64,000 nucleotides of DNA from Myxococcales bacterium (GCA_047601445.1 JASGJH010000001.1:2560001-2624000); one strand, 5' to 3'. Numbered from the stretch's first letter, positions 25,122 through 52,002 are shown. A program made the numbers and translations. The notes: generated by a model from the sequence alone, not told the origin.

Positions 25122-25161
25122 TTGCAACGAGCCTGACACCAGAATCTCACGAGAACTGCAC
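25122..25161 (+). promoter_or_regulatory. Pho-box-like array, four phased half-sites
   Basis: TTGCAAC-GAGC-CTGACAC-CAGA-ATCTCAC-GAGA-ACTGCAC, ending 55 bp before the DsbA-like ATG. Confidence 0.45.
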
Positions 25162-25216
25162 GCTCCTCCCGAGTACCCCGGCTAAGGTACGCCGCTCGCA
25201 CGGAGGAAGTCCCCCA

Positions 25217-25993
25217 ATGTCCGACACGCGCACCCCGTCTGTTCGCCCGGCCTGGATCGCCGTGGCCCTGCTGGCCTTTGCCCTTTGCTTCGGGGTCGGA
25301 CACTACCTCGGCGGGCCTGCGAGCGACCCCATGCCGCTCAGCGACGGCCGCGTGTACAAGGTGCCGCTGTCCATCGCGCAGCCGCAGCGTGGCAACGCCG
25401 AGCCCCTGGTGGTCATCGTCGAATGGTGCGACCTACAGGGCACGTCGTGCAAAAGCTCCGACGCGATCACCACGGCGTTGCTGAAGCAATACCCGAACGA
25501 GCTACGCCACAGCTTCCGCCACCTGCAGCAGACGGACTCCGCTGACTCGGCGGAGCTGCACGAGTTCGCCCGCGTGGCCTTCGAGCAGAACGGCAAGTTC
25601 TGGGAAGTGCGTGAGAAAATCCTGGCGCGCCCGGCGAAGCCCGTGACCCGCGACGAGCTCGAGCAGATCGCCAAGAGCGTCGGCATCGACTGGAAGGGCA
25701 TGCAGGAGGCACTGAGCTCCGATCGCTTGGTTCCCTACGTGTTTGCCGACGGGATGTTCGCCCAGCGTTTTGGTGTGACTGCGGGCCCGACGTTTTACGT
25801 CAACGGCCGCCGCTTGGCAGAGCCGGTGACGGCCGAGCGCCTCGACGCGCTGGTCGAGCAGGAGATGGCGCACGCCAAGCAGGTGCTGGCGAAGACCAAG
25901 GTCGAGAAGGCTCTCCTTTACCAGGAGCTCACCAAGGACGGCTTGTTCCAGCCTCCGCTGCCTGTGGTCGCGCAGACCCAGACGACTCACTGA
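25217..25993 (+). CDS. DsbA/thioredoxin-fold membrane-anchored protein with atypical active site
   Basis: RGNAEPLVVIVEWCDLQGTSC, FRH, EQNGKFWE, GVTAGPTFYVNGR; GGAGG RBS. Confidence 0.85.
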   Translation: MSDTRTPSVRPAWIAVALLAFALCFGVGHYLGGPASDPMPLSDGRVYKVPLSIAQPQRGNAEPLVVIVEWCDLQGTSCKSSDAITTALLKQYPNELRHSFRHLQQTDSADSAELHEFARVAFEQNGKFWEVREKILARPAKPVTRDELEQIAKSVGIDWKGMQEALSSDRLVPYVFADGMFAQRFGVTAGPTFYVNGRRLAEPVTAERLDALVEQEMAHAKQVLAKTKVEKALLYQELTKDGLFQPPLPVVAQTQTTH

Positions 25994-26035
25994 AAACCGG
26001 CGCGCGTGGTTCGACGAGTGCCGAAGAGGACACAG

Positions 26036-26899
26036 ATGGCTGGGCTGAGGAAACTGTTTACGGTGGTGATGCTCGCCCTTCCGGTCGGACTGGGCCTCGG
26101 ATGCGGCGACGATCTCGGTGAGTGCGACGACAAGGCCGCCAACGAGCTCGTGTACAGCAACACCTGGCACGTGGCCACCAAGGGCCAGGCCTTGATGAAC
26201 GACTCCTGTGGAAACGGGTCCTTCTGTCACTCGGTGGGCGCCACTGGAGATGCGCGCGGCGGAGTAGCGAAGGACCTCAACTTCGACATGCTGCCGCAAC
26301 CGTCGGGCTGGCCCAAGGTCATGGACCATCGCGACGGGATCTGGAAGTCCATCGCCAATGGCACCATGCCGCCCGGAAAAGGCGGCGCCGCCAAGCTCAG
26401 CGACGGGGAGTGGAGCTTCGACCCCTGGCGTCGCGCAGGATCGCCGATGTTGCCCAAGATGCACACCAAGGCTGGTCAGGCCGCATTTCGCAACTGGCTC
26501 GCCTGCGGCGCACCGGTGGTCACGCAAACCGAAGTCCCGCTGTGGGCGCGCCCGACCGGGCAGACCAACTTGGGTGACTGGAGCGGGATCTACACGACCA
26601 TCGTGCAGGGACGCTGCGCCAACGGTGGCTGCCACGATCGCATCACCCACGAGGGCGACCTCGATCTCTCCGACGAGTGCAAGGGCTACAAGGCACTGGC
26701 GGGCACGAGCGGCCAGTGCGGCGTGCCGCGCCTGGTGCCGGGAGACGTCAATTCGAGCGTGATGCAGCAGCTGGAGCGTCGTTCCACCTGCGGTGACCCC
26801 ATGCCTCCGGAACCGGCGGCACCCCTCACGGATCCCGAGCTCGACGTGGTCCGCAAGTGGATCCAAAACGGCGCGCCCGCCATGAACTGCGGGGGTTGA
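26036..26899 (+). CDS. Putative di-heme c-type cytochrome lipoprotein with CX5CH and CX4CH motifs
   Basis: Lipobox GLGC; SCGNGSFCH...GTMPP...RNWL; RCANGGCH...VPGD...PMPP...RKWIQNGAP. Confidence 0.75.
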   Translation: MAGLRKLFTVVMLALPVGLGLGCGDDLGECDDKAANELVYSNTWHVATKGQALMNDSCGNGSFCHSVGATGDARGGVAKDLNFDMLPQPSGWPKVMDHRDGIWKSIANGTMPPGKGGAAKLSDGEWSFDPWRRAGSPMLPKMHTKAGQAAFRNWLACGAPVVTQTEVPLWARPTGQTNLGDWSGIYTTIVQGRCANGGCHDRITHEGDLDLSDECKGYKALAGTSGQCGVPRLVPGDVNSSVMQQLERRSTCGDPMPPEPAAPLTDPELDVVRKWIQNGAPAMNCGG

Positions 26900-26903: not shown

Positions 26904-28458
26904 ATGGCTACGATCGCACGCTTGCTCTTGTTGTGCCTCCTGCCGCTGGCCTTCCTGGCGGGCTGCGACGACGAACCGAACAACGCCACCGAGCTGAGCG
27001 CAAACTACATCCGGCAATGCGGAGATCACCACGTGCTCGGGCCACGGTGAATGCAGCGCGGGTGACGGCGGGTCCGCCCAGTGTACCTGCGAGGGCGGCT
27101 ACCGAGGCGATAGCTGCCAGTACTGCGAGCCGGGCTTTCACCGCGATTTCTACGACAACTGTACGCGCGACCGGCACTGCTCCGATCAGCCGACCGACTT
27201 CTGCAGCAACCACGGCACCTGCAAGGACGACACCGGCGCGCTCGAGTGCACCTGCGAGACCGGCTATGAAGGGCCCCGTTGCAACCTGTGTGCAGCCACC
27301 CACGGTCGCAATGAGTACGGCGAGTGCGTGCTACTGACGCTCGATCCATCGCAGCCCGGTATGTCCACGCGCTGCAACCCCGATCTCTGCAGCGGCCACG
27401 GCGGCTGCGACGACACCAGCTCTGCGCCGCGCTGCATCTGCGACGCGGGCTACGCGGGCAATCGCTGTGACGGTTGTGCGGACGGCTACGTGCGCCACGG
27501 CAACCTGTGTGCGCGCGACAACGCCTGCTTCGAGGGCGTGTGCGGCGGCCACGGCAGCTGCGACGATCGCTACGGCGCCGTCGAGTGCGTGTGCGGGACG
27601 GGCTTCGGCGGATCGCGCTGCGAGGTCTGCGCATCCGGCTACCACGTGGAGGGGACCTCCTGTGTGATCGACCCGGATTGCCGCGCGAACACCTGCGGTG
27701 GTCTGGGTCCGTGCGCGAACTCGGGCGCGGGCCCGGTGTGCTCGTGCCAGGCGCCCGCCACGGGAGCGCACTGCGAGGCGTGCACCGCTGGCTTCCATCC
27801 GGTGATCAGCGGCGGCTGCGCAGCCAATGAAGTTTGCTCGCCTGACTCGTGCCATGGACACGGCACCTGCGACGACACCAGCGGCATCGTGCGTTGCGAC
27901 TGCTCCACCGGCTATCGCGGTGCCAGCTGTCAGGAATGTGCCGCAGGCTATACGCCCTTCGCGAACGGAACCTGCGCGCTCTACGCCCAGTGTGCCAACC
28001 CCGTCGCCGCCCCGGGCAGCGTGGACTTCGAAGGCGTCGCCGGATTCCCTGATCTGACCGACAACTGCGTCGAGGGCCTGGCAGCCCAGCCCGCCCACGT
28101 GAGCGTGATGACCACGGGTAACGAATCGCTGTTTTCGTGCGCCAAGAGTGACGCGTACGGCATGGACAGCCACCACATCTACGTGCGCATTGGGAAGAAC
28201 GCGCCAGCCGTACTGATGTTCGATGGCACCGTGGGGTCCGTCGGCTTCGAGTACGGAGCCCGCACGGACCTGGCGCTCGATATCCTTGCGGACGACAAGC
28301 TCGTGCGACACCTGGACGGCGCGGTGAGGAGCCGCGGCACAGTCTATCTCTCGCTCTACCCGGCGATCACCAAGCTCACGATCCAGGCCTCGGGCGACGG
28401 CGCCGAGATGACCTTGGCCATCGACGACATCCAGTACTCCCCCCCGACCTGCGAGTGA
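26904..28458 (+). CDS. EGF/laminin-like repeat lipoprotein; +1 frameshift at ~27021
   Basis: MATIARLLLLCLLPLAFLAGC from ATG 26904. Removing one G at 27021-27022 joins it to repeated C.GHG.C...C.C..GY.G..C units (about six) and a C-terminal beta domain. Confidence 0.85.
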
Positions 28459-28496: not shown

Positions 28497-29786
28497 ATGC
28501 AACTCACTCCCCTCCCCAGCATCGTGCGCGCTCGCTTCGCAACGCTGGGCGCCCTGTGCCTGATGGTCTCAGCCTGCGGTGACGATCCCCAGCCTTCGAA
28601 GCACGACGGTGGGATGGAGCCCGTTCCTGGGCCCGATATGTGCGCTGCGGCTGACGCCGGAACGCCGTGCGGCGAGGGCCAATTTTGCGTCGATCATCAA
28701 TGCCTGCCCAATGTGTGCGGCGATGGCGTGCTCGCCGGACACGAGGAGTGCGACGACGGAAATCAGCTGGTCGGCGACGGCTGCTCCCCGAGTTGCCTGC
28801 TGGCGCCCCTGGGTTGCGGTGACGGTGTGGTGCAGCTGGACGAGGAGTGCGACGACGGGAACCAGTACGAGTACGACGCATGCTCCACGGCCTGTAAGCT
28901 CAACCGTTGCGGCAATGGGCGTGAAGACGGCGTGGAAGAGTGCGACGACGGCAACCTGATCAACGACGACGCTTGCAGCGTGACGTGCACCGAGAACCGT
29001 TGCGGCAACGGACGGGTGGACGTCGGCGAAGAGTGCGACGACGGCAATCAGGTGCAGGACGACGGCACCTGGATCTACCAGGACGGCACGCGCAACAACC
29101 GCGACACCTGCAGCAACGCGTGCATCCAGATCGAGTGCGGCAACGGTCGCGTCGAAGGTCCCTTGCTCGGCGGGCAAGAGGAGTGCGACGACGCCAACGA
29201 GAACAACAAGGACCACTGCTCGAACAACTGCTTGGCCACCGGCTGCGGCAACGGCATTCTCGAGGTGGACCTCGGCGAGGTGTGCGAGACGGCACCCTGT
29301 CGCATGGCGGACGGTTCGGTGTGCCCGGGCAACGAAGCGAAGCGGAAGTGCGTCAAGTGCCTGGGCTGGGAAGAGGACACTGCCTGCAAGACCTGCCGCG
29401 ACACCTACTGCAGGGCCTATGATGACAGCGGTGGTGGCGCCGTAGACTTGGTGGCAGGTTGCTTCGAGAAAGACGACGCCAGCTGGGTGCAGGCCTGCGG
29501 GGACCTGGTGACCTGCATGCGTGCGAGCGGCACCGGCTACAATGAGTTGCTCGGCCCCATGGAGAGCTTCTGCGGCACCAGCAACCCTGACACCACGTGC
29601 CAGCAAGAAGGCCTCGCGGACGGCCCATGCATCAAAGAGTGGCAGGCGGCCACCAAGAGTACCGTGCTCGCCACCGTACTGGGGCGCTCCTCCAGTCCGG
29701 CGCGGGCCTCTGGATGGGCATACAAACTCATCTTGTGCGATCAAGCCTCCTGCTTGAGCCAGTGCGGTCCTGGCGCGGTCAAGTAA
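28497..29786 (+). CDS. Myxococcus Cys-rich repeat (DUF4215-type) lipoprotein with shared C-terminal Cys domain
   Basis: Lipobox VSAC; repeated CG.G....EECDDGN....D.CS..C; C-terminal domain shared with three neighbours. Confidence 0.88.
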   Translation: MQLTPLPSIVRARFATLGALCLMVSACGDDPQPSKHDGGMEPVPGPDMCAAADAGTPCGEGQFCVDHQCLPNVCGDGVLAGHEECDDGNQLVGDGCSPSCLLAPLGCGDGVVQLDEECDDGNQYEYDACSTACKLNRCGNGREDGVEECDDGNLINDDACSVTCTENRCGNGRVDVGEECDDGNQVQDDGTWIYQDGTRNNRDTCSNACIQIECGNGRVEGPLLGGQEECDDANENNKDHCSNNCLATGCGNGILEVDLGEVCETAPCRMADGSVCPGNEAKRKCVKCLGWEEDTACKTCRDTYCRAYDDSGGGAVDLVAGCFEKDDASWVQACGDLVTCMRASGTGYNELLGPMESFCGTSNPDTTCQQEGLADGPCIKEWQAATKSTVLATVLGRSSSPARASGWAYKLILCDQASCLSQCGPGAVK

Positions 29787-31233
29787 ATCCTGGACCGCGG
29801 CCGTAGCCGCTGGCTGTCTGGCTTTATCGGGCTGTGAAGGAGGTCGGCGTCCGGCCCCCCGACCTGGCGACAAGCCCGTGACCCTCGCCGTGGCGAGCGA
29901 TGCGGCGGTCCGCCCTGGCGAGGCCACGCTCCGCCCCAGCTTGCGCGTCGCCATCGTGCCCGATCTTTCGGGCACGCTCGAACCCTGCGGCTGTACACGC
30001 GACACGGCGGGAGGCATCGATCGCCTGGCAGCGGCCCTGGATGCACTCGCGCGGGAGCCCGTTCCTCTGCTCAAGCTCGCGACCGGTGCGGTGTTTGCGC
30101 GGCCCAACGATCCAGTTCACTCGCGCCCGCAACGCGAGCAGGCCGAGCTGCGAACCGAAGCCATGACAGCCGCGCTGCAGCGTCTGGATCTCGACGCGCT
30201 GGCGCTGCGCACGGAGGATCTCACCGCCTACGCACCACGCCTGGCTCAGCTCGTGCGCGCCGGAAGGCCCCACCTCTTGGGCCTCGCTTCGCACCCTGAG
30301 CTCAACCTGCAAGGCAGCGCGTTGCTCGGTGAACACGTCGGCGTGGTCAGTACCCTGGGTGAGAACTGGTCAATGGACAGCGCCACCTCACGCATCGCCA
30401 CGCGCGTGAATGAGCTGCGGTCGCAGGGGGCCCGCCTGGTGATCCTGGTCGCTGACGCCGAAACGTCCGCCGCCGATCGCGCCACGAATGTGGGGGCCGA
30501 TCTGGTAATCCGGAGCGACGGACGGCCCGACACGAGCAAGAGTGAAGTGGGTGCCGCCGTGGAGCTTCGAGGTGGTTACCAGGGCGAAGGGCTTTGGGTG
30601 CTCGACATCTGGCGCAACGATGACCAGAGCCCCGGCCTCCAGCTCCTGAAGCAAGCACCCGCGGCGACCGATCCCGCTCCCGGCCACGCCGTGCTCGCCA
30701 CCTATCGACGACTCGATCGGCAAGCGCCCCAGGACCCGACCCTGCGGCGTTTGCTCGACCAGCTCTTCGCTCGCATCAACGAACGCAACGCGGCCCTCGC
30801 GCTCGACGAACCCACGGCGCAAGCCGGCGCCAAGCACACGGCCTACGTGGGCTCCAAGACCTGCGCCGCCTGCCATACGCAGGCGTACTTTTGGTGGCTC
30901 GGCACGCAGCATGGACGGGCCTACGCGTCCCTGCAGGCGCGCAAGCGCGAGCTCGACCTCGACTGCGTCGGCTGCCACGTCACTGGCTTCGCTGAGCCGG
31001 GCGGCGCGAACCTGGCCTCGCTCACCCAGCTAGCGGGCGTGGGCTGCGAGAGCTGTCATGGTCCGGGTGGCAAACACGTGGACGATCCGCGCAGGATCGC
31101 ACCCGAGATCCACCGTCAAGTGGGGGCCAACAAGTGCATCAGCTGCCACGACGCCCAGCACAGCGATCCGTTCGAATACGAGAAATCACGTGCCGCGCTG
31201 CTGACTCCAGCGCATGGAGGCTCGGGCCGCTGA
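29770..31233 (+). CDS. UshA-like (CGC motif) domain fused to a tetraheme c554-like cytochrome; probable lipoprotein
   Basis: GTLEPCGC...GGIDR; YVGSKTCAACH, CVGCH, VGCESCHGPG, CISCH. An in-frame lipoprotein signal lies upstream of GTG 29878, with a candidate CTG start at 29770. Confidence 0.85.
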   Translation: MARSSKSWTAAVAAGCLALSGCEGGRRPAPRPGDKPVTLAVASDAAVRPGEATLRPSLRVAIVPDLSGTLEPCGCTRDTAGGIDRLAAALDALAREPVPLLKLATGAVFARPNDPVHSRPQREQAELRTEAMTAALQRLDLDALALRTEDLTAYAPRLAQLVRAGRPHLLGLASHPELNLQGSALLGEHVGVVSTLGENWSMDSATSRIATRVNELRSQGARLVILVADAETSAADRATNVGADLVIRSDGRPDTSKSEVGAAVELRGGYQGEGLWVLDIWRNDDQSPGLQLLKQAPAATDPAPGHAVLATYRRLDRQAPQDPTLRRLLDQLFARINERNAALALDEPTAQAGAKHTAYVGSKTCAACHTQAYFWWLGTQHGRAYASLQARKRELDLDCVGCHVTGFAEPGGANLASLTQLAGVGCESCHGPGGKHVDDPRRIAPEIHRQVGANKCISCHDAQHSDPFEYEKSRAALLTPAHGGSGR

Positions 31234-31239
31234 GCGCTC

Positions 31240-32199
31240 TCAGGCCGAGGGACGCAACGAACCGCGCTTCCCGATCAACGTGAACACGAGCGCCAAGACG
31301 AGGGCCGTACCCAACCCGACGACGAGGCTCATGTCGGATCCGAAGCGCAGCCAGGTGGGCACCTTGGCGCGCTCGATCACCAGCTTCGCTTCCATTTCCT
31401 TGGTGGCACTGGTCGGCAGTCCAGCTTGCTTGGCGTCGCGCACGATCTGTTCGGCCTTCTCGAATTCACGCTCCTGCAGGGCGAGCGCCCAAGCGTAGGT
31501 GAAGGTCCGGGGATCTTGCGGCGAGAGCTTGCGGAAGGTGTCCACGCAGGTGCGCAAACGATCCTCGTCCTCGAGTCGCAGCGCAAGCTCGCAGCGCAGC
31601 TGGGCGACCAGCTGCTTGGCGGCGAGCTCCACCCCCATCTCCTTGTCCAGGTGCGCCATGACGGCGTCGAGCTCCTGCACCTCGGCGGACGACGGGGCCT
31701 GATCGCGGGCCAGCATCAAGCGCACGTAGACCGCGTAGTCATCGGCCGTGACGCCACCCAGACCGAGCGCCGTCTTGCAGCTCTCGATGGCGTGCTCGAG
31801 ATCGCCGAGCTCCTTGTAGGACCGGCACATCTTGCTGAAGGAGACCGCGCGCTCCGGCACCGCCTTGGCGATCGCCTGGTAGTAGCGAACCGCGGCGGCG
31901 TGATCACCGCGCTGCGAGGCGGCCTCGGCCCGCGCGATCAGGTCCATCATCAAGTACCCCATGTCGAGCGGCTTCTTCAGCGCCTGCTCGGGCGTGGGCA
32001 CGCTGCGCTCGGGGTGAGCCTCGTCGATGGCCCCTGGAGGGCTGAGGTCGCCCCGCTTGACCTGCTCCAAATCGGGCGGGACGTAGCCGGGCTCGCCTTC
32101 GGTGAGCTGCTGGGCTGGCTGGGCCGACCCGAATCCGGGCGAGGCAAACGCTCCGATGACGACGAGGATGGAGAACGCGAGATGGCGATAGGGCGTCAT
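31240..32199 (-). CDS. Exported TPR protein with C-terminal membrane anchor
   Basis: Signal peptide; AAAVRYYQAIAKAVPE...LGDLEHAIESC TPR; C-terminal hydrophobic stretch followed by KR. Confidence 0.8.
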   Translation of the reverse strand: MTPYRHLAFSILVVIGAFASPGFGSAQPAQQLTEGEPGYVPPDLEQVKRGDLSPPGAIDEAHPERSVPTPEQALKKPLDMGYLMMDLIARAEAASQRGDHAAAVRYYQAIAKAVPERAVSFSKMCRSYKELGDLEHAIESCKTALGLGGVTADDYAVYVRLMLARDQAPSSAEVQELDAVMAHLDKEMGVELAAKQLVAQLRCELALRLEDEDRLRTCVDTFRKLSPQDPRTFTYAWALALQEREFEKAEQIVRDAKQAGLPTSATKEMEAKLVIERAKVPTWLRFGSDMSLVVGLGTALVLALVFTLIGKRGSLRPSA

Positions 32200-32219: not shown

Positions 32220-33449
32220 TCAGGGCATGCATTGCGGGTTGCAGTTCGCAGCGTCGCAGCTGGTGAGCGAGTAGGCCGCGCCCGACGGACGCGAGGGAGC
32301 CGAGGCGCGCTTGAGAATCTCGGCCGTACCCGTGGAGATGGCTGCTTGGTTGCAAGCCGCCGAGGTAGCGCATACGCCGGTGGCCAGGGCCCACTGCGCG
32401 CGGCAAGGTCCATCGGCATTGCCCGGCGTCTGACAGGCGGTCGACGGATCCTTGGTGCCGCAGAAGCTCTCGATGGGTCCGTTGGTGCCGTCGTAGCCGC
32501 TCTTGTGCTCGAACATGCAGTTTCGAAGATCGACGCAGAGCTGGACCAGCGTGGCGTCCGTCTTGTCGAAGCACTCGCCGACCGCGTTGTACGTATCGAA
32601 GTCCCGGCAGTTGTCTTCGCGGCACTGCTTGCAGGCCGCCTTCTGCTCAGGCTTGTCTCCGTAGACGACCCCTGCGTCGCTGCCGCCACCGCCAGCATCA
32701 TGCTGGTGTCCAGCATCGGACCCGGAGCCACCCGCGTCCGCGTGGTGGCCAGCGTCATGTCCGGCGTCTGCGTGAGTGCCGCCGTCGTGAGTGCCAGCGT
32801 CGTGACCGCCGCCCGCGTCGCTCGCTCCCGTGCCCGAATCCATCGAGCCGTCGTCCGTGCCCGAGTCCAGCGGATACGTGCAATCCGTCCGACACTCGTC
32901 GGTATCCACGGCGTTACCGTCGTCACACTGCTCGCCCAAATCCAGCAGGCCGTTGCCGCACAGCGCAGGGGCCAGCGTGCAGTCGCTGCGACAGCTGTCA
33001 CCGTTGGCCTGATTGCCGTCGTCGCACTCCTCGGTGGGACTCTTGATGCGATCGCCACAGCGTACGAGGGTGCAGCGTGGCGTGCAGGTCGCACTGCCCT
33101 CGGCGCCGTCGTCGCACTCCTCGCCACCGTCAACTTGGCCGTTGCCGCAGCCGGCGGGGGTCTCCACCTTGCAGCGCGAGTCGCAGCCGTCGCCGTCGCG
33201 CTCGTTGCCGTCGTCACAGACCTCGTCGCCAACCAAACAGCTGTCCCCGCAGGCATTGGCGATGCACGCCCCGTAGACGCAGTGGCTCAAGCCCTCGCCG
33301 CAGGGTGTGCAGTCGGGTGCCTGGTCACAGCTGGCCTGTTTGGACTCTCCGCCCTGATCGGGCGCCGTGTGGAGCAGCTCGATCTTGCGATCGTCGCCGC
33401 AGCCGACCAGCGGTAGAGCGAGGCCCAGCAGATAGAATGCCCTTCGCAT
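32220..33449 (-). CDS. Myxococcus Cys-rich repeat lipoprotein with His-rich linker and shared C-terminal Cys domain
   Basis: Lipobox LVGC; four CDDG repeats; HDAG linker. Confidence 0.88.
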   Translation of the reverse strand: MRRAFYLLGLALPLVGCGDDRKIELLHTAPDQGGESKQASCDQAPDCTPCGEGLSHCVYGACIANACGDSCLVGDEVCDDGNERDGDGCDSRCKVETPAGCGNGQVDGGEECDDGAEGSATCTPRCTLVRCGDRIKSPTEECDDGNQANGDSCRSDCTLAPALCGNGLLDLGEQCDDGNAVDTDECRTDCTYPLDSGTDDGSMDSGTGASDAGGGHDAGTHDGGTHADAGHDAGHHADAGGSGSDAGHQHDAGGGGSDAGVVYGDKPEQKAACKQCREDNCRDFDTYNAVGECFDKTDATLVQLCVDLRNCMFEHKSGYDGTNGPIESFCGTKDPSTACQTPGNADGPCRAQWALATGVCATSAACNQAAISTGTAEILKRASAPSRPSGAAYSLTSCDAANCNPQCMP

Positions 33450-43900: not shown

Positions 43901-44862
43901 GACCACCCGGAGCAGCCGGCGGCAACATTGCGCGCATCTTCGATGTGGGCAGCGGCGTAGCCGCCGAAGACTGGGCCGCGCGCTACGTGGTGTGGATGGG
44001 CTTGGGTGGAACGACACGAACCATCCCAGCACCGGTGTTGGGTCTCGTGTTCAACAACAACGTCTTCGGCGAGCCCCGCGGTGGCGGCACCACGATTGCG
44101 GCTACTGACGCCAACATGCTCACCGTGCCACGCAAGCTGTGTCAGAATTTGCTCGACGCGAGCGAGGGCCTCACCTCCTCAGGCTTCACTCTGAGCGGAG
44201 ATCCCAACTCAGATGCCGTGTGGGGCGTACGCGATCCTTATGCCCATGGAAGCGCCAAAGATGTGCTGCTCTCCACGAGCGGCGATCGCGAGATGTGGGA
44301 GCGCATTTGCTCCTTCCAGAATCTAAAGCCTCTGATCGTCGTGGAGCCGGTCTACGGCAAGGATGAAGCCAAGAACCTCATCGTGAGCTCGCTGAAAGTG
44401 AACTTTGCGCCCCGCGAGTCCTATGGGAGCACTCGTGCCGTGGGCGATCCACGCCGCGTCGATGCCTCTGGGCAACCCCTCAACGGCATTTCAGCCGGTA
44501 TCCACGACGACAATCCCGAGCCCTGGTGCATCGTCAATCCCACGGGTGCTCAAGCAGACGCGCTCAATGCGTACCTGGCGGCCCTTGATGCCTCGAAGGC
44601 CCCCCTCTGCCCCCCCGAGCTGCAACCCGGTACGACTGCGATGCTGAACTACGACCTTCCTTCGGTGGCAGAGAACCCAGACCAAAAGACAGGCCGCGCG
44701 TCGATGGAAATCTGGAGCATCCGTGGCGCCATGAACGCGGGCCTCGCCGTGTACCTCTATCTCGAAGCGCTCACGCACGGGAAGCCCGCGGCGGTGCCCT
44801 ACGACCACTGCGAAGAGCTCAACGTCACCGACACGGGCGCTGAAGTGATGTGCGGGCCCTGA
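40960..44862 (+). CDS. ~1300-aa multiheme c-type cytochrome lipoprotein (4 CxxCH) with SO2930-like di-heme core
   Basis: Lipobox LAAC; CGNCH, CNHCH, CAHCH, CSSCH; LWADNAKK.R...P, FYKTF, VETRLIV, GTYVWNE. Confidence 0.85.
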   Translation: MVTGLRRIRLLALALACAELAACGDNLADKTQGELAAPDAAADVEDAQVPEQVTDLSCTPVVTSDNLPARTAAMSERGGGGGGSAAVTTEQLFQAFKGRCGNCHSSGSNSGNFAIPLASNFATTFDSVVLSYIQSNDPDKVMPPIDSPEGKLYQDRAADDPVRKFAELTQAWIAAGKPADAFFPPAEATPVGVGFTLPRRVGLALTNLGNCIPSPDLVGTETQESQKLDDMFAGLKSSDELPDRLEATDLVSLDSAVLASHGVIGFAPAYTLWADNAKKMRAVRVPRGKSIEFDAATQSFKIPDNTRFYKTFMREVVDHRGNKSYRKVETRLIVARADIEKEGCDPEPQALFGTYVWNEAETEAVLNKDRLRNGSGFRDRLITYITDEQKADELIAEGPENIQAALADAHLSRHYGLPGSERCNHCHMGSGSKSFILGFTPLQINRRPLDQGGVIEPAERDELNQLQRLISYGVITGIDPAHLDQVNLLENSQGDRKPRNDYELRAQGYMVGNCAHCHNPRGYPSRLARELRDGLIFAPSAEDGHGIFQFPLDKVSPRIRRGSKLDHSIPYLSPSLYDLAGQGYSYKLHDELTKNPDHTVDAPWRSLIYRNVDAPFSYSADFAIFPHMPMDTPGYDCRARRILGSWMVSIPAKFKYGALGCVDASVNPNRNTIDHHLGETEVIIRTSDKEWTYGEAVGGTRLTSDELDAIEHDPQQYAEVKPSDSDFLVENLRAQGRVKQFTISSRYNDCQDPSVDMVDPDILAGKRVTPSSVQAWPLRDADGKPMIEAAPDAGVDAGTYYATYDFGSPNDIELGTTGMPSHSHWSETDLTETTSKWEPRRSDWQDPVVDKKKSAWTGHDDDTWEYSAIDLLEKLPKVADYRTFATTDLPVTHWLAKPECDLSAQPKDSTFTGAQRMRWMGAEGSSDTPVYMQSPGAFVFGQVCSSCHGPKADSKGRQAATIADMTAGETRVANLRDGLLGPPGAAGGNIARIFDVGSGVAAEDWAARYVVWMGLGGTTRTIPAPVLGLVFNNNVFGEPRGGGTTIAATDANMLTVPRKLCQNLLDASEGLTSSGFTLSGDPNSDAVWGVRDPYAHGSAKDVLLSTSGDREMWERICSFQNLKPLIVVEPVYGKDEAKNLIVSSLKVNFAPRESYGSTRAVGDPRRVDASGQPLNGISAGIHDDNPEPWCIVNPTGAQADALNAYLAALDASKAPLCPPELQPGTTAMLNYDLPSVAENPDQKTGRASMEIWSIRGAMNAGLAVYLYLEALTHGKPAAVPYDHCEELNVTDTGAEVMCGP

Positions 44863-44890: not shown

Positions 44891-46858
44891 ATGGCGATCT
44901 CTCAAACCGCCGATCAGCTCCTGGCGACGGGCCTCGCGCACCATCGCCAGGGAGATCACAAGGCAGCCGAGCGTTGCTATCGCGCCGTCTTGCAGGACCG
45001 GCCGACGCACACACAGGCGCTCTACCTGAGCAGCGTGATCGCGCTCGAATCAGGGCGCTTCGACGACGCAGTCGCCTTGTTGGAATCGGCCGTCGCTCAA
45101 GCGCCCAAACAGGTCGTGCTGTGGTGCAACTTGGGAGAGGCCCTGCGGCGCTCCGGCCGCCTGGAGAGCGCAACGGCTAGCCTGGAACGCGCAGTCGAGT
45201 TGGGCCCGGAGCACGCGGAGGCCCACGCCAACCTGGGTCTGACCTTCTTTCAGCGTCGCAAGTGGGCCCAGGCCGCTGCCTGCTGTCAGCTCGCGCTGAG
45301 CTTGAATCCGGCGCTGTCCATGTGCAGCGAGCTGCTGATCGACTCCTTGCGTGAGCTCGGAGAGCACACACGCGCGTGCGCTGCCTACGAACGCTTCGCT
45401 GCGGCCAACCGCGGTAGCAGCGGAGTCCATGTGGCCATTGCACGGGTCCTGCTCGCGCTGGGTCGGGTAGACGCAGCCGTGACGCATTGCGAAGCAGCGC
45501 TTACCGCGGGTCCCCGCAGCGCCCACGCGCTGAGTGTCCAGGCGCTCGCCGTGAGTGCTCGCGGAGAGGCCACGCGCGCCACGCGTCTGCTGCGCGAAGC
45601 CATCGCGCTCGAACCTGCGAACGCCCCGATCCACAGCCACCTCGTGTTTTCCCTGATGTACGACCCTGCGGTCGAGTCCGACGAGATCGCCCAGGAAGCC
45701 CGCAGCTACCAGGCTCGCCATCTGCGCGCGATTCCGCGCGTCGAGCACTCTCGCGCCCAAGACCCCGAGCGACGACTGCGCATTGGCTACGTTTCGGGTG
45801 ACTTCAAGCTGCACGCGGCGACGATGTTCATGTTGCCCCTGCTGCGGCACCATGATCGTTCGGAGTTCGACTTCCACTGCTACGCCAACGTGAGCCAGCC
45901 CGACGCGGTGACCGAGGACTTCCAGGCGCTGGCCGACGTGTACCGCGACATCGTCGCCCTCGATGACGCCTCCGCGGCACGCCTGATCCGCGACGACCGC
46001 GTCGACATCCTCGTCGATCTCAGCATGCACTCGGAGGGCCACCGCCTGGGGGTCTTCGCCCACAAGCCCGCGCCCGTTCAGGTCTCCTGGCTGGCGTATC
46101 CGGGCACCACCGGGGTCTCGGCCATCGACTATCGGCTGACCGATCTGCAGCTCGATCCCGCAGGAGCAGTCGAGCAGGAATCCTACACCGAGCGCCCCTG
46201 GCATTTGCCGCACAGCTTCTGGTGCTACGACCCGCTGGTCGAAGGCATCTTCCCGAATGCACCGCCGGCCCTCACGGCTGGTCACGTCACGTTCGGCAGC
46301 CTGAACAATCACCGCAAGGTCAACGACCTCACGCTCACGCTCTGGGCGCGTGTGTTGGCCGCCGTGCCCGGCTCTCGCTTCCTGATGCTGGCGCCGGAAG
46401 GTGAAGCGCGCGTGCGCGCACTCTCGACCTTCGCGCGCTTCGGGGTCGAAGAAGATCGCGTGACGTTCGTGGCAGCGGGCATGCGACGCGACGTCTACCT
46501 GCGGACCTATCATCGCATCGACTGCTGTCTCGACGCGCTGCCCTTTCATGGCGGAACCACGAGCTTCGACGCCTGGTGGATGGGCGTGCCCGTGATCAGC
46601 TTGGTCGGGAAGACGGTGGTCGGTCGCATGGGCGCAAGCATCGCTTGCAACCTTCGTGTGACGAACCTCGTCGCGCACTCTTCCGAGGAATACGTGGCCT
46701 GCGCAGCCTCGTTAGCGCGTGACCTCGGTGAGCTCGCAACGCTTCGAAAAGAATTGCGAACTCGCATGGAATCCTCGGTATTGATGGACGCTTCGCGTTT
46801 CGCGCGGGAGCTCGAGGTCAGCTATCGCGAGATGTGGCGACAATGGTGTCTGGGCTAG
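44891..46858 (+). CDS. TPR + GT41 (SPINDLY/OGT-like) glycosyltransferase
   Basis: N-terminal TPRs; RLRIGYVSGDF..H, DILVDL..H, KPAPVQVSWLAYPGTTG, TFGSLN...K, LD..PF.GGTTS.DA.WMGVPV. Confidence 0.92.
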   Translation: MAISQTADQLLATGLAHHRQGDHKAAERCYRAVLQDRPTHTQALYLSSVIALESGRFDDAVALLESAVAQAPKQVVLWCNLGEALRRSGRLESATASLERAVELGPEHAEAHANLGLTFFQRRKWAQAAACCQLALSLNPALSMCSELLIDSLRELGEHTRACAAYERFAAANRGSSGVHVAIARVLLALGRVDAAVTHCEAALTAGPRSAHALSVQALAVSARGEATRATRLLREAIALEPANAPIHSHLVFSLMYDPAVESDEIAQEARSYQARHLRAIPRVEHSRAQDPERRLRIGYVSGDFKLHAATMFMLPLLRHHDRSEFDFHCYANVSQPDAVTEDFQALADVYRDIVALDDASAARLIRDDRVDILVDLSMHSEGHRLGVFAHKPAPVQVSWLAYPGTTGVSAIDYRLTDLQLDPAGAVEQESYTERPWHLPHSFWCYDPLVEGIFPNAPPALTAGHVTFGSLNNHRKVNDLTLTLWARVLAAVPGSRFLMLAPEGEARVRALSTFARFGVEEDRVTFVAAGMRRDVYLRTYHRIDCCLDALPFHGGTTSFDAWWMGVPVISLVGKTVVGRMGASIACNLRVTNLVAHSSEEYVACAASLARDLGELATLRKELRTRMESSVLMDASRFARELEVSYREMWRQWCLG

Positions 46859-46907: not shown

Positions 46908-46925
46908 TTGGCACCAAACCGTCAC
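46908..46925 (+). promoter_or_regulatory. Pho-box-like site
   Basis: TTGGCAC-CAAA-CCGTCAC, 57 bp before ATG 46983. Confidence 0.5.
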
Positions 46926-46982
46926 AAACCATCACTACTTCAGGGGCACACAAACTCTCGAACCTAGACGGAGTCGATACGA

Positions 46983-48461
46983 ATGACGATGCTCAAGCGC
47001 ACCCTCCTGGCTCTCACGCTGGCGAGCTCCACCGCACAACTCGCCGCTTGCGGCAGCGATGAACCTTCGGACGGCCCTTCGCACCAGGGCGACGGCGACG
47101 GCGACGGCGATGCCAGCATCCCGACGGGCGACGGCGACGCTGGCAACCAGGGCGACGGTGGGACGACCCCCGAAGGCGAGAAGGGCCCCGAGCTTCCCTC
47201 CTGCCCCTCCGATCCTCACATCACGGCCGACGCCACCAACAAGGTCTGCCTGATCAGCGCGCCCAAGGGCAACGAGATCAAGACCAACCTCACGCTCAGC
47301 CGCGTGAAGGACTACAAGGGCTACGTGTTCCAGGGTGTCGTGTACGTCGGTGAAGACGTCGGCCACGACGCGACCCCGGCCGCTGGCAAGGCCCAGGCGA
47401 CCCTCACCATCACGCCCGGCACCGACCTGGCCGGCCTCGACAACACCTCCGGTCTCGCCATCAACCGCGGCTCCAAGCTGATCGCCGAAGGCCTCAAGAC
47501 CGCGCCCATCACCTTCACCAGCGTCAACGCGCTGCTCGGCACCGGCGTCGCGGCGCCCACCGACTGGGGTGGCGTCGTGCTGATGGGCCGCGCCACGCAG
47601 AACGTCGGCGTGGACCCCGTCACCGAGCTCGACACCGGCTCCTACGGCGGCGCTGACGACCACGACAACAGCGGCTCGCTCAAGTACGTCCGCGTGATGT
47701 TCTCCGGCGCGCGCAGCTCCAAGGAGAAGGAGTTCAACGGCATCACGCTCTACGCGGTCGGCGACGCCACCAAGATCGAGTACGTGCAGGTCCACGCGGG
47801 CAGCGACGACGGCATCGAGTTCTTCGGCGGCACGGTGAACGTCAAGCACGTCGTGATCAGCGGCGGCGGCGACGACAACCTCGACTGGACCGATGGCTGG
47901 CGCGGCAAGGCCCAGTTCGTGCTCGCCAAGCAGGTCCCGAACTTCGGTGACAACGGCCTCGAGGCCGACAACCAGAAGACCAACAACTCCCTCATCCCCG
48001 TGTCCGAGCCCACGCTGGCCAACCTGACCTTCCTGGGCCAGGTCACGGCCCCCGGCGAGAGCGGTCCCAACGGCTTCCTGCTGCGCGCCGGAACCAAGGG
48101 CCACATCTACAGCGCCGTGGCCACCAACTTCAAGAACAGCTGCGTCAACGTCGACGGCGACGTGAGCCAGGCTTTCGTGGGCACCGACGCCCTCACGATG
48201 GTGTCCAGCCGCATCTCCTGCTCCGTGAGCTACCTCGGCAAGGGCGAGCAGCTCTTCACGGGCTCTGCCACCAACCAGGTGCTGCCCTCGGCCGACGTGT
48301 TCGACAACGCCTACATGCCCAAGGCCGACTCCGGCCTGCTCACCGGCGGCACCGTCCCGGCCAACGATCCCTTCTTCGAGAACGTGCCCTACATCGGCGC
48401 GTTCGGCACCGAAGACTGGACCGCCGGCTGGACCGCGTACCCCGACTTCCAGCCCAAGTGA
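46983..48461 (+). CDS. Beta-helix-type lipoprotein of the kind found next to TonB receptors
   Basis: Lipobox LAAC; GDGDGD linker; ATLTITPGT, PITFTS, WGGVVLMG.A, YGG...DNSG.LKYVRV, DDGIEFFGGTV, DDNLDW.DGW.G, YIGAF...W..GW. Confidence 0.85.
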   Translation: MTMLKRTLLALTLASSTAQLAACGSDEPSDGPSHQGDGDGDGDASIPTGDGDAGNQGDGGTTPEGEKGPELPSCPSDPHITADATNKVCLISAPKGNEIKTNLTLSRVKDYKGYVFQGVVYVGEDVGHDATPAAGKAQATLTITPGTDLAGLDNTSGLAINRGSKLIAEGLKTAPITFTSVNALLGTGVAAPTDWGGVVLMGRATQNVGVDPVTELDTGSYGGADDHDNSGSLKYVRVMFSGARSSKEKEFNGITLYAVGDATKIEYVQVHAGSDDGIEFFGGTVNVKHVVISGGGDDNLDWTDGWRGKAQFVLAKQVPNFGDNGLEADNQKTNNSLIPVSEPTLANLTFLGQVTAPGESGPNGFLLRAGTKGHIYSAVATNFKNSCVNVDGDVSQAFVGTDALTMVSSRISCSVSYLGKGEQLFTGSATNQVLPSADVFDNAYMPKADSGLLTGGTVPANDPFFENVPYIGAFGTEDWTAGWTAYPDFQPK

Positions 48462-48510
48462 CCTGACCTCGTGAGAGCCCCCAAAGGCCCCTCACGCGCA
48501 GGTTGAACCC

Positions 48511-48550
48511 GAAGCGGCCGCCATTTCATGGCAGGCCGCTTCTTCGTTTT
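48511..48550 (+). terminator. Rho-independent terminator-like hairpin
   Basis: GAAGCGGCCGCCAT-TTC-ATGGCAGGCCGCTTC followed by TTCGTTTT. Confidence 0.7.
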
Positions 48551-48683
48551 GTGACGAAACGAAGGCAACGCGGAGATCGCGCCCCGGCCCCGCGATCACG
48601 CCGGAAAAGCCCTGCTTATTCGAATGACTCCCGTGGCACAGACATTTCGGAGTCGGTCGAAACGTTGCTGCCATTCCGCCATT

Positions 48684-48701
48684 TAGCAACACAGTTGTCA
48701 C
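48684..48701 (+). promoter_or_regulatory. Pho-box-like site upstream of TonB receptor
   Basis: TAGCAAC-ACAG-TTGTCAC-AAAG. Confidence 0.45.
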
Positions 48702-48798
48702 AAAGCGGCCTTAGAAGCTGGCCTGCACCCCACATCGGGTACGGCTCAATCCTCGCGTGGAGCCCCCGCTGCGCGAGGTGACCCCGCCCGTGCTGGGC

Positions 48799-51700
48799 AT
48801 GAGGAGGCTCGCTTTGTCTGCCCTACGATCGTTGTCTGCTGCGCTGCTGATTTTGTGTGGGTCTTTACTGGGTGCACAGCACGTCCGTGCTCAGCCCACC
48901 GTCGAAGCAGCCCAGCAAGAACAAGGTGCCGTGCACCTGGTGCTCTTCGGCACCTCCGACCAGCTCCTCGCGGGAGTCACCGTCGAGATCGATGGCCAGA
49001 GCGCCCAGACGGCTCAGGACGGCAGCGTCACCGCGACGCCGACGCCTGGTACGCACAAGCTTCGCCTGCGCGTGCCGCACGCTCTGGTGCCCGAGGCGCC
49101 CACGCAGGATGCCGAGTGGGTCGTCGACGTGTCCGACGTTGCCGTGCTGGCCAATCAGACCACCGAGGTGATGGTCACGTTGAGCCCCTCGGGCGGCATC
49201 GCCGGCCTCGACATCCAGGCGCCCGAGGCCGCTGGCGGCAGCCACAGCCTGCAGCGCGAGTTCCAGGAGAAGGTCGCCGAGCAACCGGCCGGCACCATCC
49301 AGGGCACCGTGACGGCCAAGGAAGATGGCAGCCCCGTGGCGGGCGCGCGTGTCTACGTGCGCGGCGCGCCCGTGGAGACCGCGACCGATGACAACGGCTT
49401 TTTCACGCTCACCATGCCGGCGGGCAAGTGTCAGCTCGCGGTGGTGCATCCCTCGTATGCGACGCAATCGGTGCCCGACGTGGAAGTGCGCGGCGGTAAG
49501 GTCAACGCGGTCACGGCGCAGCTGAGCCCTGCCTCGATGGAAATCGACGAGTTCCTGGTCACCGCGCCGCACATCGAGGGCGGTATCGCGAGCTTGATCT
49601 CCGAGCGACGCGAGAGCTCCAACGTGGCCGACGTGATCGGCGCCGAGCAGATGTCCCGCTCGGGTGCCACCAACGCCGCCTCCGCGCTGTCGCGCGTCAC
49701 GGGCCTCACCGTGGTCGACGGCAAGTTCGTGGTCGTGCGCGGTATGGGCGAGCGCTACTCGAGCATGCTCGTGAACAACATGTTCGTGCCGAGCCCCGAG
49801 CCCACCCGTCGCGTGGTGCCGCTCGATCTGTTCCCGGCCGGCATCCTCGATAGCGTGGTCGTGCAGAAGACCTTCTCGCCCGACGCACCGGCGGAGTTCG
49901 GCGGCGGCGTGATCCAGCTGCGTACCCGCAGCTATCCGGACCGCTTCATGGCCAACGTCTCGGTGGGTGGCGGCGTCAACTCGCAGTCCACCTTCCGCAA
50001 CAACCTCAACTACAGCGGCGGCAAGCGCGACTACCTCGGCATCGACGACGGCAATCGCGCGCTGCCGGGACCCATCGATCACTCCAAGAAGATCACCAAG
50101 TTCAACGCGCTGACGGGCGGCTACACGGACGAGGAGCGCGCCAAGTACGGCAAGATGCTGCGCAACGATCTGCAGGAGAAGCGCGAGCGCACGCTGCCCG
50201 ACCTCACGCTGACGGGCTCCATCGGCAACCGCTGGAACCTGCGCCACGCCAAGATCGGCTTCGTGGCGGCGCTCGGCTACCGCAGCCAGACGCGCGCCCT
50301 GCGCGACAGCCTGCTGCGCAGCGTGACCAACACCGGCTCCAAGCTGCAGATCGACAACGACCTGCGCGTGAACAACACGGAGCGCCAGATCTCCACCAGC
50401 GGCTTCCTGGACTGGGGCGTCGAGTTCTCGGAGCGCAACAAGCTCAAGTTCACCAGCATGCTGCTGCGTCAGACCGACGACACCACCACGCAGCTGAGCG
50501 GCAAGTTCGGCACCGGCGGCGGCAGCACCACGCCCGACAGCGTGCAGACCCGGCTCGGCTGGATCGAGCGTCAGCTCTTCGATCAGCAGATCTCCGGCAA
50601 GCACATCATCCCCAAGCTGAACGACTTCCAGCTCGACTGGCGCTACTCGTTCGCTCAGGCCAACCGCAACGAGCCCGACCGCCGCGACTACTTCTACAGC
50701 GACAATGGCTCGGGCAGCTTCGAGCTGTCGCAGGCCGCCGGCGACTACGAGCGCCAGTGGGGCACGCTCACGGACCGCACCTATCAGGTGGGCCTCGACC
50801 TCACCCAGCCCATCAACATCTGGTCGCAGCTCAAGGCCAAGGCCAAGGTGGGCGGCCTAGTGTACTGGCGCAACCGCGACTCGCACGTGCGCCGCTTCGA
50901 GTTCCAGGGCGGGCTCGACCCGATGACCCTGGCCAAGCCCATCAACCAGATCTACACGCCCCAGCGCATCGACTCGGGCGCCGTGAACCTGATCGAGACC
51001 ACCTTCGCCCAGGACTCCTATACCGCCAAGATGCAGCTCAACGCGGCCTACGCGATGCTCGAGCTGCCGCTGCTGAAGAACCTCGACATCATGGGCGGCG
51101 CCCGAGTGGAGCAGGCCATCATCTCGGTGACCAGCTTCGACCAGTTCAACCCGCTGGCCGGCGCCGAAAAGGCCGAGCTCAGCAAGACGCCCGACGTGCT
51201 GCCCGCCATCACGGCCACCTGGCGCTTCGCCGAAGACTTCCAGCTGCGCGCTGGCTACGGCAAGACCGTGAACCGCCCCGATCTGCGCGAGCTCTCGACG
51301 TCGTCCTACTACGACATCGAGACCGCCAGCACCTTCGCCGGTGTGCCCACGCTCAAGCGCGCCTTGATCGACAACGTGGACGGCCGCCTCGAGTACTACT
51401 TCAGCAGCGACGAAGTGTTCTCGGTGGGTGCCTTCTACAAGCGCTTCAAGGACCCGATCGAGACCGTGTTCCGCAACTCGGCGGACGTGCTGTACACGTT
51501 GCAGAACTCGGACAAGGCGCGCCTGTTCGGCCTCGAGATCGAAGGTCGCAAGCGCCTGGGCTTCCTCGCCGAAGCGCTCGACACCCTGTTCATCGCGGGC
51601 AACTTCTCCTGGATCGACTCCGAGGTGACCTACACCCCGGACGGCCTCAAGAAGACCTCGCGCCCGCTGCAGAGCCAGAGCCCCTGGGTCGTGAACGCCC

Positions 51701-52002
51701 AGCTCGGCTACGACGACGACGTCGAAGGCGGCAGCGGCACCGCGGTCTCGCTGCTCTACAACATCAGCGGTCCGCGCCTGCGCGCCATCGGTAACGCGAT
51801 GGCCGGCATCCCGGATCAGTACGAGCAGCCTTTCCACCAGCTGGACCTGGTGGCGAGCCAGCGCCTGCCGCACAACCTGCAGCTCGGCCTGCGCGGACAG
51901 AACCTGCTCAACGCCACCCAGCGCTGGACCCAGGGCCACATCACCACGCGCGAGTTCAAGCGCGGTGTCTACATCGTGGCCAACCTGGCCTGGAGCTACT
52001 GA
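48799..52002 (+). CDS. TonB-dependent receptor with N-terminal carboxypeptidase-regulatory-like domains
   Basis: GTIQGTV...PVAGARVYV, plug ALSRVTGLTVVDGKFVVVRGMGERYS, VPLDLFP, NRPDLREL, GLEIEGRK, QNLLN; terminal WSY. Confidence 0.93.
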   Translation: MRRLALSALRSLSAALLILCGSLLGAQHVRAQPTVEAAQQEQGAVHLVLFGTSDQLLAGVTVEIDGQSAQTAQDGSVTATPTPGTHKLRLRVPHALVPEAPTQDAEWVVDVSDVAVLANQTTEVMVTLSPSGGIAGLDIQAPEAAGGSHSLQREFQEKVAEQPAGTIQGTVTAKEDGSPVAGARVYVRGAPVETATDDNGFFTLTMPAGKCQLAVVHPSYATQSVPDVEVRGGKVNAVTAQLSPASMEIDEFLVTAPHIEGGIASLISERRESSNVADVIGAEQMSRSGATNAASALSRVTGLTVVDGKFVVVRGMGERYSSMLVNNMFVPSPEPTRRVVPLDLFPAGILDSVVVQKTFSPDAPAEFGGGVIQLRTRSYPDRFMANVSVGGGVNSQSTFRNNLNYSGGKRDYLGIDDGNRALPGPIDHSKKITKFNALTGGYTDEERAKYGKMLRNDLQEKRERTLPDLTLTGSIGNRWNLRHAKIGFVAALGYRSQTRALRDSLLRSVTNTGSKLQIDNDLRVNNTERQISTSGFLDWGVEFSERNKLKFTSMLLRQTDDTTTQLSGKFGTGGGSTTPDSVQTRLGWIERQLFDQQISGKHIIPKLNDFQLDWRYSFAQANRNEPDRRDYFYSDNGSGSFELSQAAGDYERQWGTLTDRTYQVGLDLTQPINIWSQLKAKAKVGGLVYWRNRDSHVRRFEFQGGLDPMTLAKPINQIYTPQRIDSGAVNLIETTFAQDSYTAKMQLNAAYAMLELPLLKNLDIMGGARVEQAIISVTSFDQFNPLAGAEKAELSKTPDVLPAITATWRFAEDFQLRAGYGKTVNRPDLRELSTSSYYDIETASTFAGVPTLKRALIDNVDGRLEYYFSSDEVFSVGAFYKRFKDPIETVFRNSADVLYTLQNSDKARLFGLEIEGRKRLGFLAEALDTLFIAGNFSWIDSEVTYTPDGLKKTSRPLQSQSPWVVNAQLGYDDDVEGGSGTAVSLLYNISGPRLRAIGNAMAGIPDQYEQPFHQLDLVASQRLPHNLQLGLRGQNLLNATQRWTQGHITTREFKRGVYIVANLAWSY

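Follow-up and report, generated by a model that had tools for sequence, protein, structure and literature searches.

Do the oversized PstS-like proteins, cytochrome lipoproteins and Cys-rich lipoproteins that stand side by side in one myxobacterial genome belong to a single system, and what would such a system do? We addressed this question for positions 25122-52002 of a 64,000-nucleotide stretch of Myxococcales bacterium DNA (hereafter the window), which is C1:2560001-2624000 of a 9.5-Mb single-contig genome (G000; GCA_047601445.1) that is 98.7% complete. A first-pass annotation had proposed that all 27 kb encode one PhoB-controlled surface system coupling phosphate capture to redox chemistry. 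All of the genes it named were located, at 25217-52002: an atypical DsbA, EGF- and Cys-repeat lipoproteins, a GT41 protein, a TonB receptor with its lipoprotein, two oversized PstS-like proteins, and three cytochrome lipoproteins with 2+4+4 heme sites, those of the 26036 gene being atypical (CX5CH and CX4CH) and the others carrying four CxxCH each. Within this region, our analysis delimited a core that is almost certainly a conserved unit. It comprises a PstS-like protein (PST), a tetraheme lipoprotein of 1300 amino acids (aa; CYT), lipoproteins that share a C-terminal Cys domain (CD), and a TPR protein, whose gene at 31240-32199 had been overlooked. The core features, in window positions, are as follows.

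36376-38310, plus strand: PST1, core; 644-aa secreted protein with predicted PstS fold and a signal peptidase I type signal
38553-40487, plus strand: PST2, core; tandem duplicate of PST1 (90% aa and 89% DNA identity)
About 40581-40779, plus strand: broken remnant, the 3′ end of a third PST copy
40861-40882, plus strand: Pho-box-like 11-bp direct repeat upstream of CYT (13.2 bits, rank 31 of 7125)
40960-44862, plus strand: CYT, core; 1300-aa tetraheme c lipoprotein with four CxxCH
34343-35977, minus strand: stalk lipoprotein, core; FN3-like and PKD domains, DUF4215 repeats, CD at the C-terminus
33498-34076, minus strand: short lipoprotein of the core family, CD alone; upstream Pho-like site of 11.1 bits at about 34146-34178
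32220-33449, minus strand: lipoprotein of the core family, DUF4215 and CD
28497-29786, plus strand: lipoprotein of the core family, DUF4215 and CD
31240-32199, minus strand: TPR protein, core; signal peptide, hydrophobic C-terminal anchor and basic tail

Conservation was analyzed at loci anchored on either PST or CYT. There were 52 PST-anchored loci, of which 39 with at least 8 kb of flank were counted and 13 with short flanks were dropped; CYT-anchored metagenome loci were taken from the best 80 of 317 matches, with 31 counted and 49 dropped for short flanks. The 39 PST-anchored loci held CD in 35, CYT in 33, the FN3-PKD stalk in 30, TPR in 27, and a dedicated signal peptidase I (S26) in 24. 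Rarer neighbours were a sigma-54 activator (10), GT41 (8) and a heme β-barrel (6), and the rarest were the PF28492 lipoprotein (3), the DsbA-like gene (2), EGF (1) and c554 (0). Similarly, the 31 loci retained from the best 80 CYT matches held PST in 24, CD in 24, the peptidase in 18, TPR in 18, the sigma-54 activator in 9, the heme barrel in 8, the TonB pair in 5, GT41 in 1 and c554 in none; the gene caller had overlooked CYT in 4 of the 31. Core membership was constant among related loci and gene order varied. Synteny across relatives, put forward as a check on the earlier proposal, was therefore conserved for PST, CYT, CD and TPR, and was not conserved for c554, GT41 or the TonB pair.

Genome draws gave the same association. 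In a class-level draw, CYT was present in 16 of 251 genomes and PST in 16 of 251, with both in 15; the two exceptions sit at contig ends. Carriers were patchy within one family (14 of 40 genomes), and a draw across the whole phylum yielded 2 of 301. PST lay within 7 kb of each of the seven CYT copies in five genomes. Judging by source names, the related loci come from Polyangia myxobacteria, all of them metagenome assemblies, with a few records under other or vague labels, and no cultured carrier was found among the named records. A chance neighbourhood of Cys-rich myxobacterial lipoproteins would describe the c554 copy and, to some extent, GT41 and the TonB pair. For the core, it is refuted by the synteny and by the co-occurrence of PST and CYT in 15 of 16 genomes; CD, which in this genome is confined to two clusters and just two other places, also argues against it. 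The probability of a chance neighbourhood is negligible. One of those clusters is a second, divergent core copy (G000:C1:7024978-7035600, L021) that contains only stalk lipoproteins, TPR, PST and CYT.

PST was then compared with known phosphate-binding proteins. A single-sequence PDB search was blank, no Pfam family matched (PF12849 included), and TIGR02136 scored 24 bits against a cut-off of 206.6. A profile of 106 PST sequences, however, matched Pseudomonas aeruginosa PstS (E 4.8e-13), and the predicted model (pLDDT 85.6, pTM 0.89) covered the whole PstS fold, with Z 20.2 and a root-mean-square deviation of 2.6 Å over 242 of 244 residues of Vibrio cholerae PstS. Into this fold PST1 inserts about 350 Cys-rich residues; it has 24 Cys, and the family 24-28 per protein. 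At each position of the pocket motifs (GSDT, GS, SR and RxxxSGT), 168-203 of 205 sequences keep the residue, the motifs are intact in PST1 and PST2, and about 90% of PST sequences retain the full small-anion pocket. In PstS structures, these residues are the phosphate ligands. From the fold model and the pocket, PST is very probably a phosphate-binding protein. It shares the two-lobe fold, pocket motifs and Pho-box context of PstS (TIGR02136 type; PDB 1twy, 4gd5, 4omb), although it is twice as long, carries disulfide-rich insertions and often DUF4215 tails, scores below the PF12849 and TIGR02136 cut-offs and lies away from pstCAB. The permease genes pstC/A were near only 1 of 148 loci (the exception having pstA/B within the stretch) compared with 9 of 11 control loci, and the canonical pstSCAB-phoU operon of this genome is separate from the locus, at C1 8.92 Mb. 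Tandem, diversified PST copies occur across loci. A small clade has the pocket variant Gln55/Thr73/Ala74; it was observed in L103, L113, L123 and L156, none of which has a box of at least 10 bits.

Phosphate-related genes recurred near the core: an OprO/P porin, a second PBP with a 22.6-bit box, phoBR orthologues and arsenate-resistance genes. An arsenate reductase gene adjoins PST in L029, L035, L039, L058, L134 and L204, with an aquaporin gene as well in four of them, as would be expected if the system also imports arsenate.

CYT consists of an N-terminal class I heme domain, a central SO2930-like diheme domain and a C-terminal heme domain. The central domain matched TIGR03806 at 1.6e-28 and 99.8 bits, below the cut-off of 313.3. 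In 81 full-length sequences, none of the four CxxCH motifs varies. Conservation is 97-100% for five Met, reaches 90% and 83% for just two spare His, and exceeds 80% for 13 Trp; there is one heme per about 325 residues. The hemes are thus predicted to be mostly His/Met-ligated, with possibly one lacking a distal ligand, and this sparse His/Met pattern suggests high potentials and oxidative work. An Atlas search returned only proteins of the same kind, and relatives at E≤1e-30 formed 487 clusters, including fragments and SO2930-type relatives. Fusions of CYT to DUF4215 stalks occur in at least five relatives, and CD is joined to heme proteins twice: to a large diheme protein outside the cluster (G000:C1:3829379-3832144) and to a monoheme domain (L134:4742-6280). 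The SO2930/SO2931 pair, a TIGR03806 diheme cytochrome with a β-helix partner, is homologous to CYT in the central domain; CYT differs in adding two heme domains to the SO2930-type domain of about 310 aa, in scoring below the cut-off and in having PST as its partner. A conventional SO2930-type pair is present elsewhere in this genome. SO2930 is named as an outer-membrane or extracellular cytochrome in PMC4837345, and no function for it was found in the open-access literature.

These features bear on two redox explanations. The first-pass annotation had offered the release of phosphate from Fe(III) minerals as its example: a surface redox assembly would reduce the mineral and free phosphate for PST. 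Heme proteins are indeed integral to the loci, namely CYT, the CX4CH cytochromes and, in the minority of loci counted above, the heme barrel, and Pho boxes accompany them. Known mineral reductases such as MtrC, OmcA and OmcS are dense bis-His multihemes. CYT has one heme per about 325 aa, five conserved Met, too few conserved His for bis-His ligation and average codon bias; moreover, the heme barrel was not found in this genome and the c554 gene is not conserved, so the example is disfavoured and we consider it improbable. Alternatively, a surface CYT acting as an oxidase or peroxidase would attack organic phosphorus or reduced phosphorus compounds, and PST would capture the phosphate released. 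The low-copy, catalytic codon profile of CYT suits this explanation, as do the His/Met pattern with its possible open heme, the many invariant Trp, the placement of CYT on Cys-rich stalks in some relatives and the Pho box upstream of the gene. Nevertheless, no substrate-binding or phosphatase neighbour is conserved, and this explanation would account neither for the dedicated peptidase nor for so many CD lipoproteins; we regard oxidative phosphorus release as unlikely.

The heme β-barrel of the related loci, a β-barrel-like protein of 380 aa with a single N-terminal CxxCH, matched no Pfam family or PDB entry and was not found in G000 (98.7% complete); it brings to mind the cytochrome-porin Cyc2. 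In cluster loci it is accompanied by two small monoheme cytochromes (L059:3271-4425, L042:11588-12766 and others).

The lipoproteins of the core are joined by CD, a domain of 135 aa with about 12 Cys that was found 92 times in 38 loci and, in the window, at the C-termini of three DUF4215/TIGR02232 lipoproteins and one short lipoprotein. It had no PDB match and no similarity to PST or CYT, and an Atlas search returned unnamed Myxococcota clusters only. The stalks combine FN3-like and PKD domains with DUF4215 repeats, and choice-of-anchor-D stalks were also seen. Wherever the start could be called, CYT and the stalk proteins had lipoprotein signals; the signal peptide of PST is plain, and the protein lacks a lipid anchor. 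The TPR protein has four invariant Cys and is likely an assembly factor. The dedicated peptidase, which was not visible from the window, keeps the catalytic Ser-Lys dyad. Signal-peptide style, judged by eye, differs between loci with and without it; this difference is confounded by kinship and was not used as evidence. A SipW-class signal model matched none of 8 N-termini. An XrtH-like exosortase-family gene, below the cut-off, was observed in L036, L042, L067, L107 and L144, with a partner membrane protein in three. The phytase lipoprotein of the window and several other lipoproteins of the genome have the same FN3-like and PKD stalk as the cluster lipoproteins, which suggests that this stalk is a shared display module. 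A phytase match in related loci was rejected as such, since it was the FN3-PKD stalk that matched; the phytase catalytic domain was in 0 loci.

Codon bias was scored against ribosomal-protein codon usage and expressed as a genome percentile. PST1 (99.9), the stalk lipoprotein at 34343 (99.8) and PST2 (98.1) ranked near the top, and CYT, TPR and GT41 were average. Across loci, PST exceeded CYT in 74 of 76 comparisons, TPR in 51 of 52 and the peptidase in 47 of 47, and the stalk lipoprotein exceeded CYT in 46 of 47 loci. By this proxy, the data suggest that PST and the stalk lipoprotein are abundant and CYT is scarce, a pattern that we infer to be one of structural subunits with their assembly machinery.

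We lean toward a surface location for the products. If PST instead remained periplasmic, buffering phosphate or feeding a signal, and CYT and TPR were its partners at the membrane, its plain signal peptide without an anchor and the sigma-54 activator in 10 of 39 PST-anchored and 9 of 31 CYT-anchored loci (the latter from the best 80 of 317) would fit. However, long stalk lipoproteins and 24-28 Cys per PST would fit an exposed site better, sigma-54 promoter patterns upstream of core genes were at shuffle level (2 of 425), and no sensor kinase is conserved; a periplasmic store or sensor is accordingly very improbable. A surface protein need not serve uptake, and the PstS fold could grip phosphate-bearing surfaces (minerals, extracellular DNA or prey envelopes) in an adhesin or matrix for which starvation is only the cue. 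The FN3/PKD, DUF4215 and choice-of-anchor-D stalks, the tandem diversified PST copies and the clade with an altered pocket are compatible with this, and two precedents exist: PstS appendages of P. aeruginosa function in adherence, according to PMC2242829, and the dedicated peptidase parallels tapA-sipW-tasA (PMC9245690). The full small-anion pocket kept in about 90% of PST and the neighbouring phosphate porins and arsenate-resistance genes suit uptake rather than adhesion, and we find the adhesin quite doubtful.

The remaining genes of the region, with the regulatory and phosphate-related context of the window, are as follows.

25217-25993, plus strand: DsbA-fold membrane-anchored protein (PF13462), lineage add-on, CX6C; Pho-like site at 25133 (13.7 bits)
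26036-26899, plus strand: cytochrome lipoprotein, add-on, CX5CH and CX4CH; weak PSCyt1 match
26904-28458, plus strand: EGF-repeat lipoprotein, lineage add-on; frame break near 27000-27030
29878-31233 (start uncertain), plus strand: UshA-like and cytochrome c554 tetraheme lipoprotein, incidental; four CxxCH
44891-46858, plus strand: TPR and GT41 (O-GlcNAc-transferase-like) protein, optional member
46908-46929, plus strand: strong Pho-box-like site (20.2 bits, rank 5 of 7125)
46983-48461, plus strand: PF28492 lipoprotein, separate Pho unit, sometimes linked
48799-52002, plus strand: TonB-dependent receptor, partner of the PF28492 lipoprotein; Pho-like site at 48684 (13.8 bits)
58929-61561, minus strand: phoB-phoR, context
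2284-4449: phytase (PF02333) lipoprotein

The DsbA-like gene has CX6C in place of CxxC in four of four orthologues, and it occurs in 3 of 9 congeners, adjoining cluster genes each time; at one congener locus (L193:495-9356), two CYT genes flank a stalk lipoprotein beside the atypical DsbA. The 26036 gene has no CxxCH, and members of its CX4CH domain family were found in 10 further cluster loci; in G005, G008, G009 and G027, the CX4CH cytochrome and EGF genes adjoin the cluster. In the EGF gene, a frame break of one base separates the signal peptide (ATG 26904) from the body; the gene is intact in L022. The c554/UshA-like gene is an extra copy of one that all congeners keep elsewhere. GT41 was found in 0 of 9 congeners. 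The PF28492 lipoprotein was found in 4 of 9, including one without PST, its family extends to Hyphomonas and flavobacteria, and the TonB pair is unlinked in congeners. The DsbA, CX4CH cytochrome and EGF genes are therefore lineage add-ons, c554 is incidental, and the TonB pair is a separate Pho unit. The idea that the whole 27 kb is one system was not supported by these comparisons, with c554/UshA-like in none of the related loci and GT41 in 8 of 39 and, from the best 80 of 317 CYT matches, 1 of 31.

The TonB pair has a precedent of its own. In Caulobacter crescentus, the lipoprotein ElpS (CC0170) of about 50 kDa is encoded beside the TonB receptor CC0171 and made in phosphate starvation, according to PMC2996285. 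The 46983 lipoprotein is ElpS-like by size and context, with a TonB receptor beside it and a strong Pho box, and it has a codon-bias percentile of 99.8-99.9; the likeness is limited to 46983-52002, and no type II secretion genes adjoin.

The phytase, 5′-nucleotidase and phoBR genes named earlier are present in the window, as is the gene at 13157 named as a porin, for which no family match was obtained. That gene belongs to a trio at 13157-15846 with a Cys-rich lipoprotein and a small secreted protein; the porin-like and small secreted proteins, also without a family match, have six paralogues each in the genome, mostly adjoining. The window had no Rfam match and no tRNA. Just upstream of it, at G000:C1:2552606-2557855, are two further genes of the PF28492-like type and one that probably encodes a polyphosphate kinase, so the phosphate-themed region reaches beyond the window.

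To analyze regulation, a Pho-box model was trained on the upstream regions of canonical pstS genes of relatives, with this genome held out and the pattern picked by eye. Ten of 11 such regions contain an 11-bp direct repeat, G[TC]CA[CT]-N6-GTCAC, which fits the Pho-box layout given in PMC4415409. When the 7125 genes were ranked by the model, pstS came 1st, the 46983 lipoprotein 5th, the TonB receptor 25th, DsbA 26th and CYT 31st. Sites of at least 10 bits were found in 6 of the 12 intergenic regions here compared with 91 of 5334 genome-wide (1.7%), which bears out the statement that Pho-box-like sites precede several units; the run is the densest in the genome, as all runs of 12 with at least four sites overlap the locus. 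Of 6 relatives examined, 5 had the repeat upstream of CYT at the equivalent position. Among the core upstream regions of other genomes, 40 of 425 had a site compared with 3 of 233 control regions, and the figure for the five genomes holding both core and control regions was 4 of 41. Furthermore, the PhoR-type kinase of the window was the best of 135 kinases when compared with those beside canonical pstS in two relatives, and phoBR orthologues directly follow the cluster in L065. From these sites, the claim of PhoB control probably holds for the cluster in this genome.

The CYT-upstream repeat was also considered as a sigma-54 promoter and rejected, since the bases after GG-N10 are TC instead of GC and the first half-site reads GC in two relatives. 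A sigma-70 scan gave 0 promoters at 34-53 kb. An orphan PhoB paralogue was observed at G000:C1:8713867-8714574 (62% identical) with a Pho-box-like site upstream (20.3 bits, rank 4); it brings to mind PhoP4 of Myxococcus xanthus.

We tentatively propose, at somewhat less than an even chance, that the core builds a Pho-induced surface coat by means of a heme-dependent maturation machine. Phosphate starvation would activate PhoB and thereby switch on the core genes. PST and the FN3-PKD-CD stalk lipoprotein would be the abundant structural subunits exported to the surface, where lipid-anchored stalks would tether the anchorless PST at the cell exterior, perhaps by means of the shared CD. TPR, the dedicated signal peptidase of most relatives and the optional GT41 would process and assemble the subunits. 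The scarce CYT may oxidatively mature the Cys-rich subunits by disulfide formation or cross-linking, as MauG/MbnH-type enzymes act on partner proteins; this role for CYT is a possibility that we hold with reserve. Phosphate captured by PST would pass through porins or TonB receptors to the ordinary PstSCAB encoded elsewhere. MauG, MbnH and BthA are heme enzymes that modify partner proteins, and they serve as a working analogy: CYT would likewise be a c-type heme enzyme of low abundance that has conserved Trp and whose gene adjoins that of a Cys-rich secreted partner, although it has four hemes and 1300 aa and lacks a sequence or profile match to them.

Several observations weigh against this coat proposal. 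CYT has no Pfam match and no PDB sequence or profile match to MauG-family structures, and its role is therefore proposed from residue patterns and by analogy. As a measure of abundance, codon bias is a proxy only. The locus counts overstate independence because the loci are kin, duplicated and in some cases present in both sets. The dedicated peptidase and the cytochrome-porin were not found in this genome. PST1 lacks its own box, with 0.9 bits upstream, and PST2 reaches 8.9 bits; 65 of 91 related loci have no site of at least 10 bits before a core gene, and sites were also elevated in reverse orientation (24 of 425) and at non-core neighbours (14 of 220). The second core copy has a sigma-54 promoter and no Pho box, and the pocket of its PST is altered to Gln55, Thr73 and Ala74. 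Hence, as judged from the boxes, PhoB control is likely in part of the family, not all of it. The sigma-54 activator gene upstream of the second copy carries a frame break in the assembly.

Finally, the core was compared with systems of similar organization. In P. aeruginosa, phosphate-binding-fold proteins of the PstS/DING type form extracellular appendages under phosphate limitation (Hxc type II secretion), and the abstracts of PMC2242829 and PMC3949141 describe no cytochrome, stalk lipoproteins or peptidase with them. PST is likewise a phosphate-binding-fold protein, with a proposed extracellular placement. It differs in that its mature N-terminus is QLKLKGSDT, without DINGGG, in that its model is nearer PstS (Z 20.2) than DING entries (Z about 11), and in that no secretion-system genes recur among the neighbours of PST loci. 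The tapA-sipW-tasA biofilm fibre of Bacillus subtilis has a signal peptidase I of its own, encoded next to a secreted protein made in abundance and the partner that anchors it (PMC9245690). Most related core loci also encode such a peptidase, beside a probably abundant secreted protein and a putative anchoring partner; however, PST has a PstS fold and the TasA subunit a jelly roll, and the peptidase is absent from the core copies of this genome. No known system compared here matched the core in all of its defining features. No description of the gene set was found in the open-access literature (supplements excluded), in agreement with the first-pass annotation, and the core, new in composition, appears undescribed, though each part has a relative.

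A bolder version of the coat proposal, which we consider rather unlikely, is that the core represents a new class of surface structure: a fibre or coat polymerized from PstS-fold proteins and CD-tipped stalks and cut by its own peptidase, in which tetraheme proteins would cross-link subunits or power new chemistry and phosphate would be harvested at a distance, with the sister clade, which has a rewired pocket and a sigma-54 promoter, retuned to another anion. That pocket-variant clade provides a natural experiment on the retuning of PstS specificity. The system also offers a 1300-aa tetraheme family without a solved relative and a new Cys domain of 135 aa, and it would place the SO2930-type domain in a functional context for the first time. 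In natural habitats, phosphorus is in short supply and frequently bound, and the known extracellular phosphorus scavengers are mostly phosphatases, porins and TonB receptors. If the coat proposal is true, a transporter-free PstS-fold protein combined with a large c-type heme enzyme would be a new scavenging strategy, in a group known here from metagenome assemblies only.

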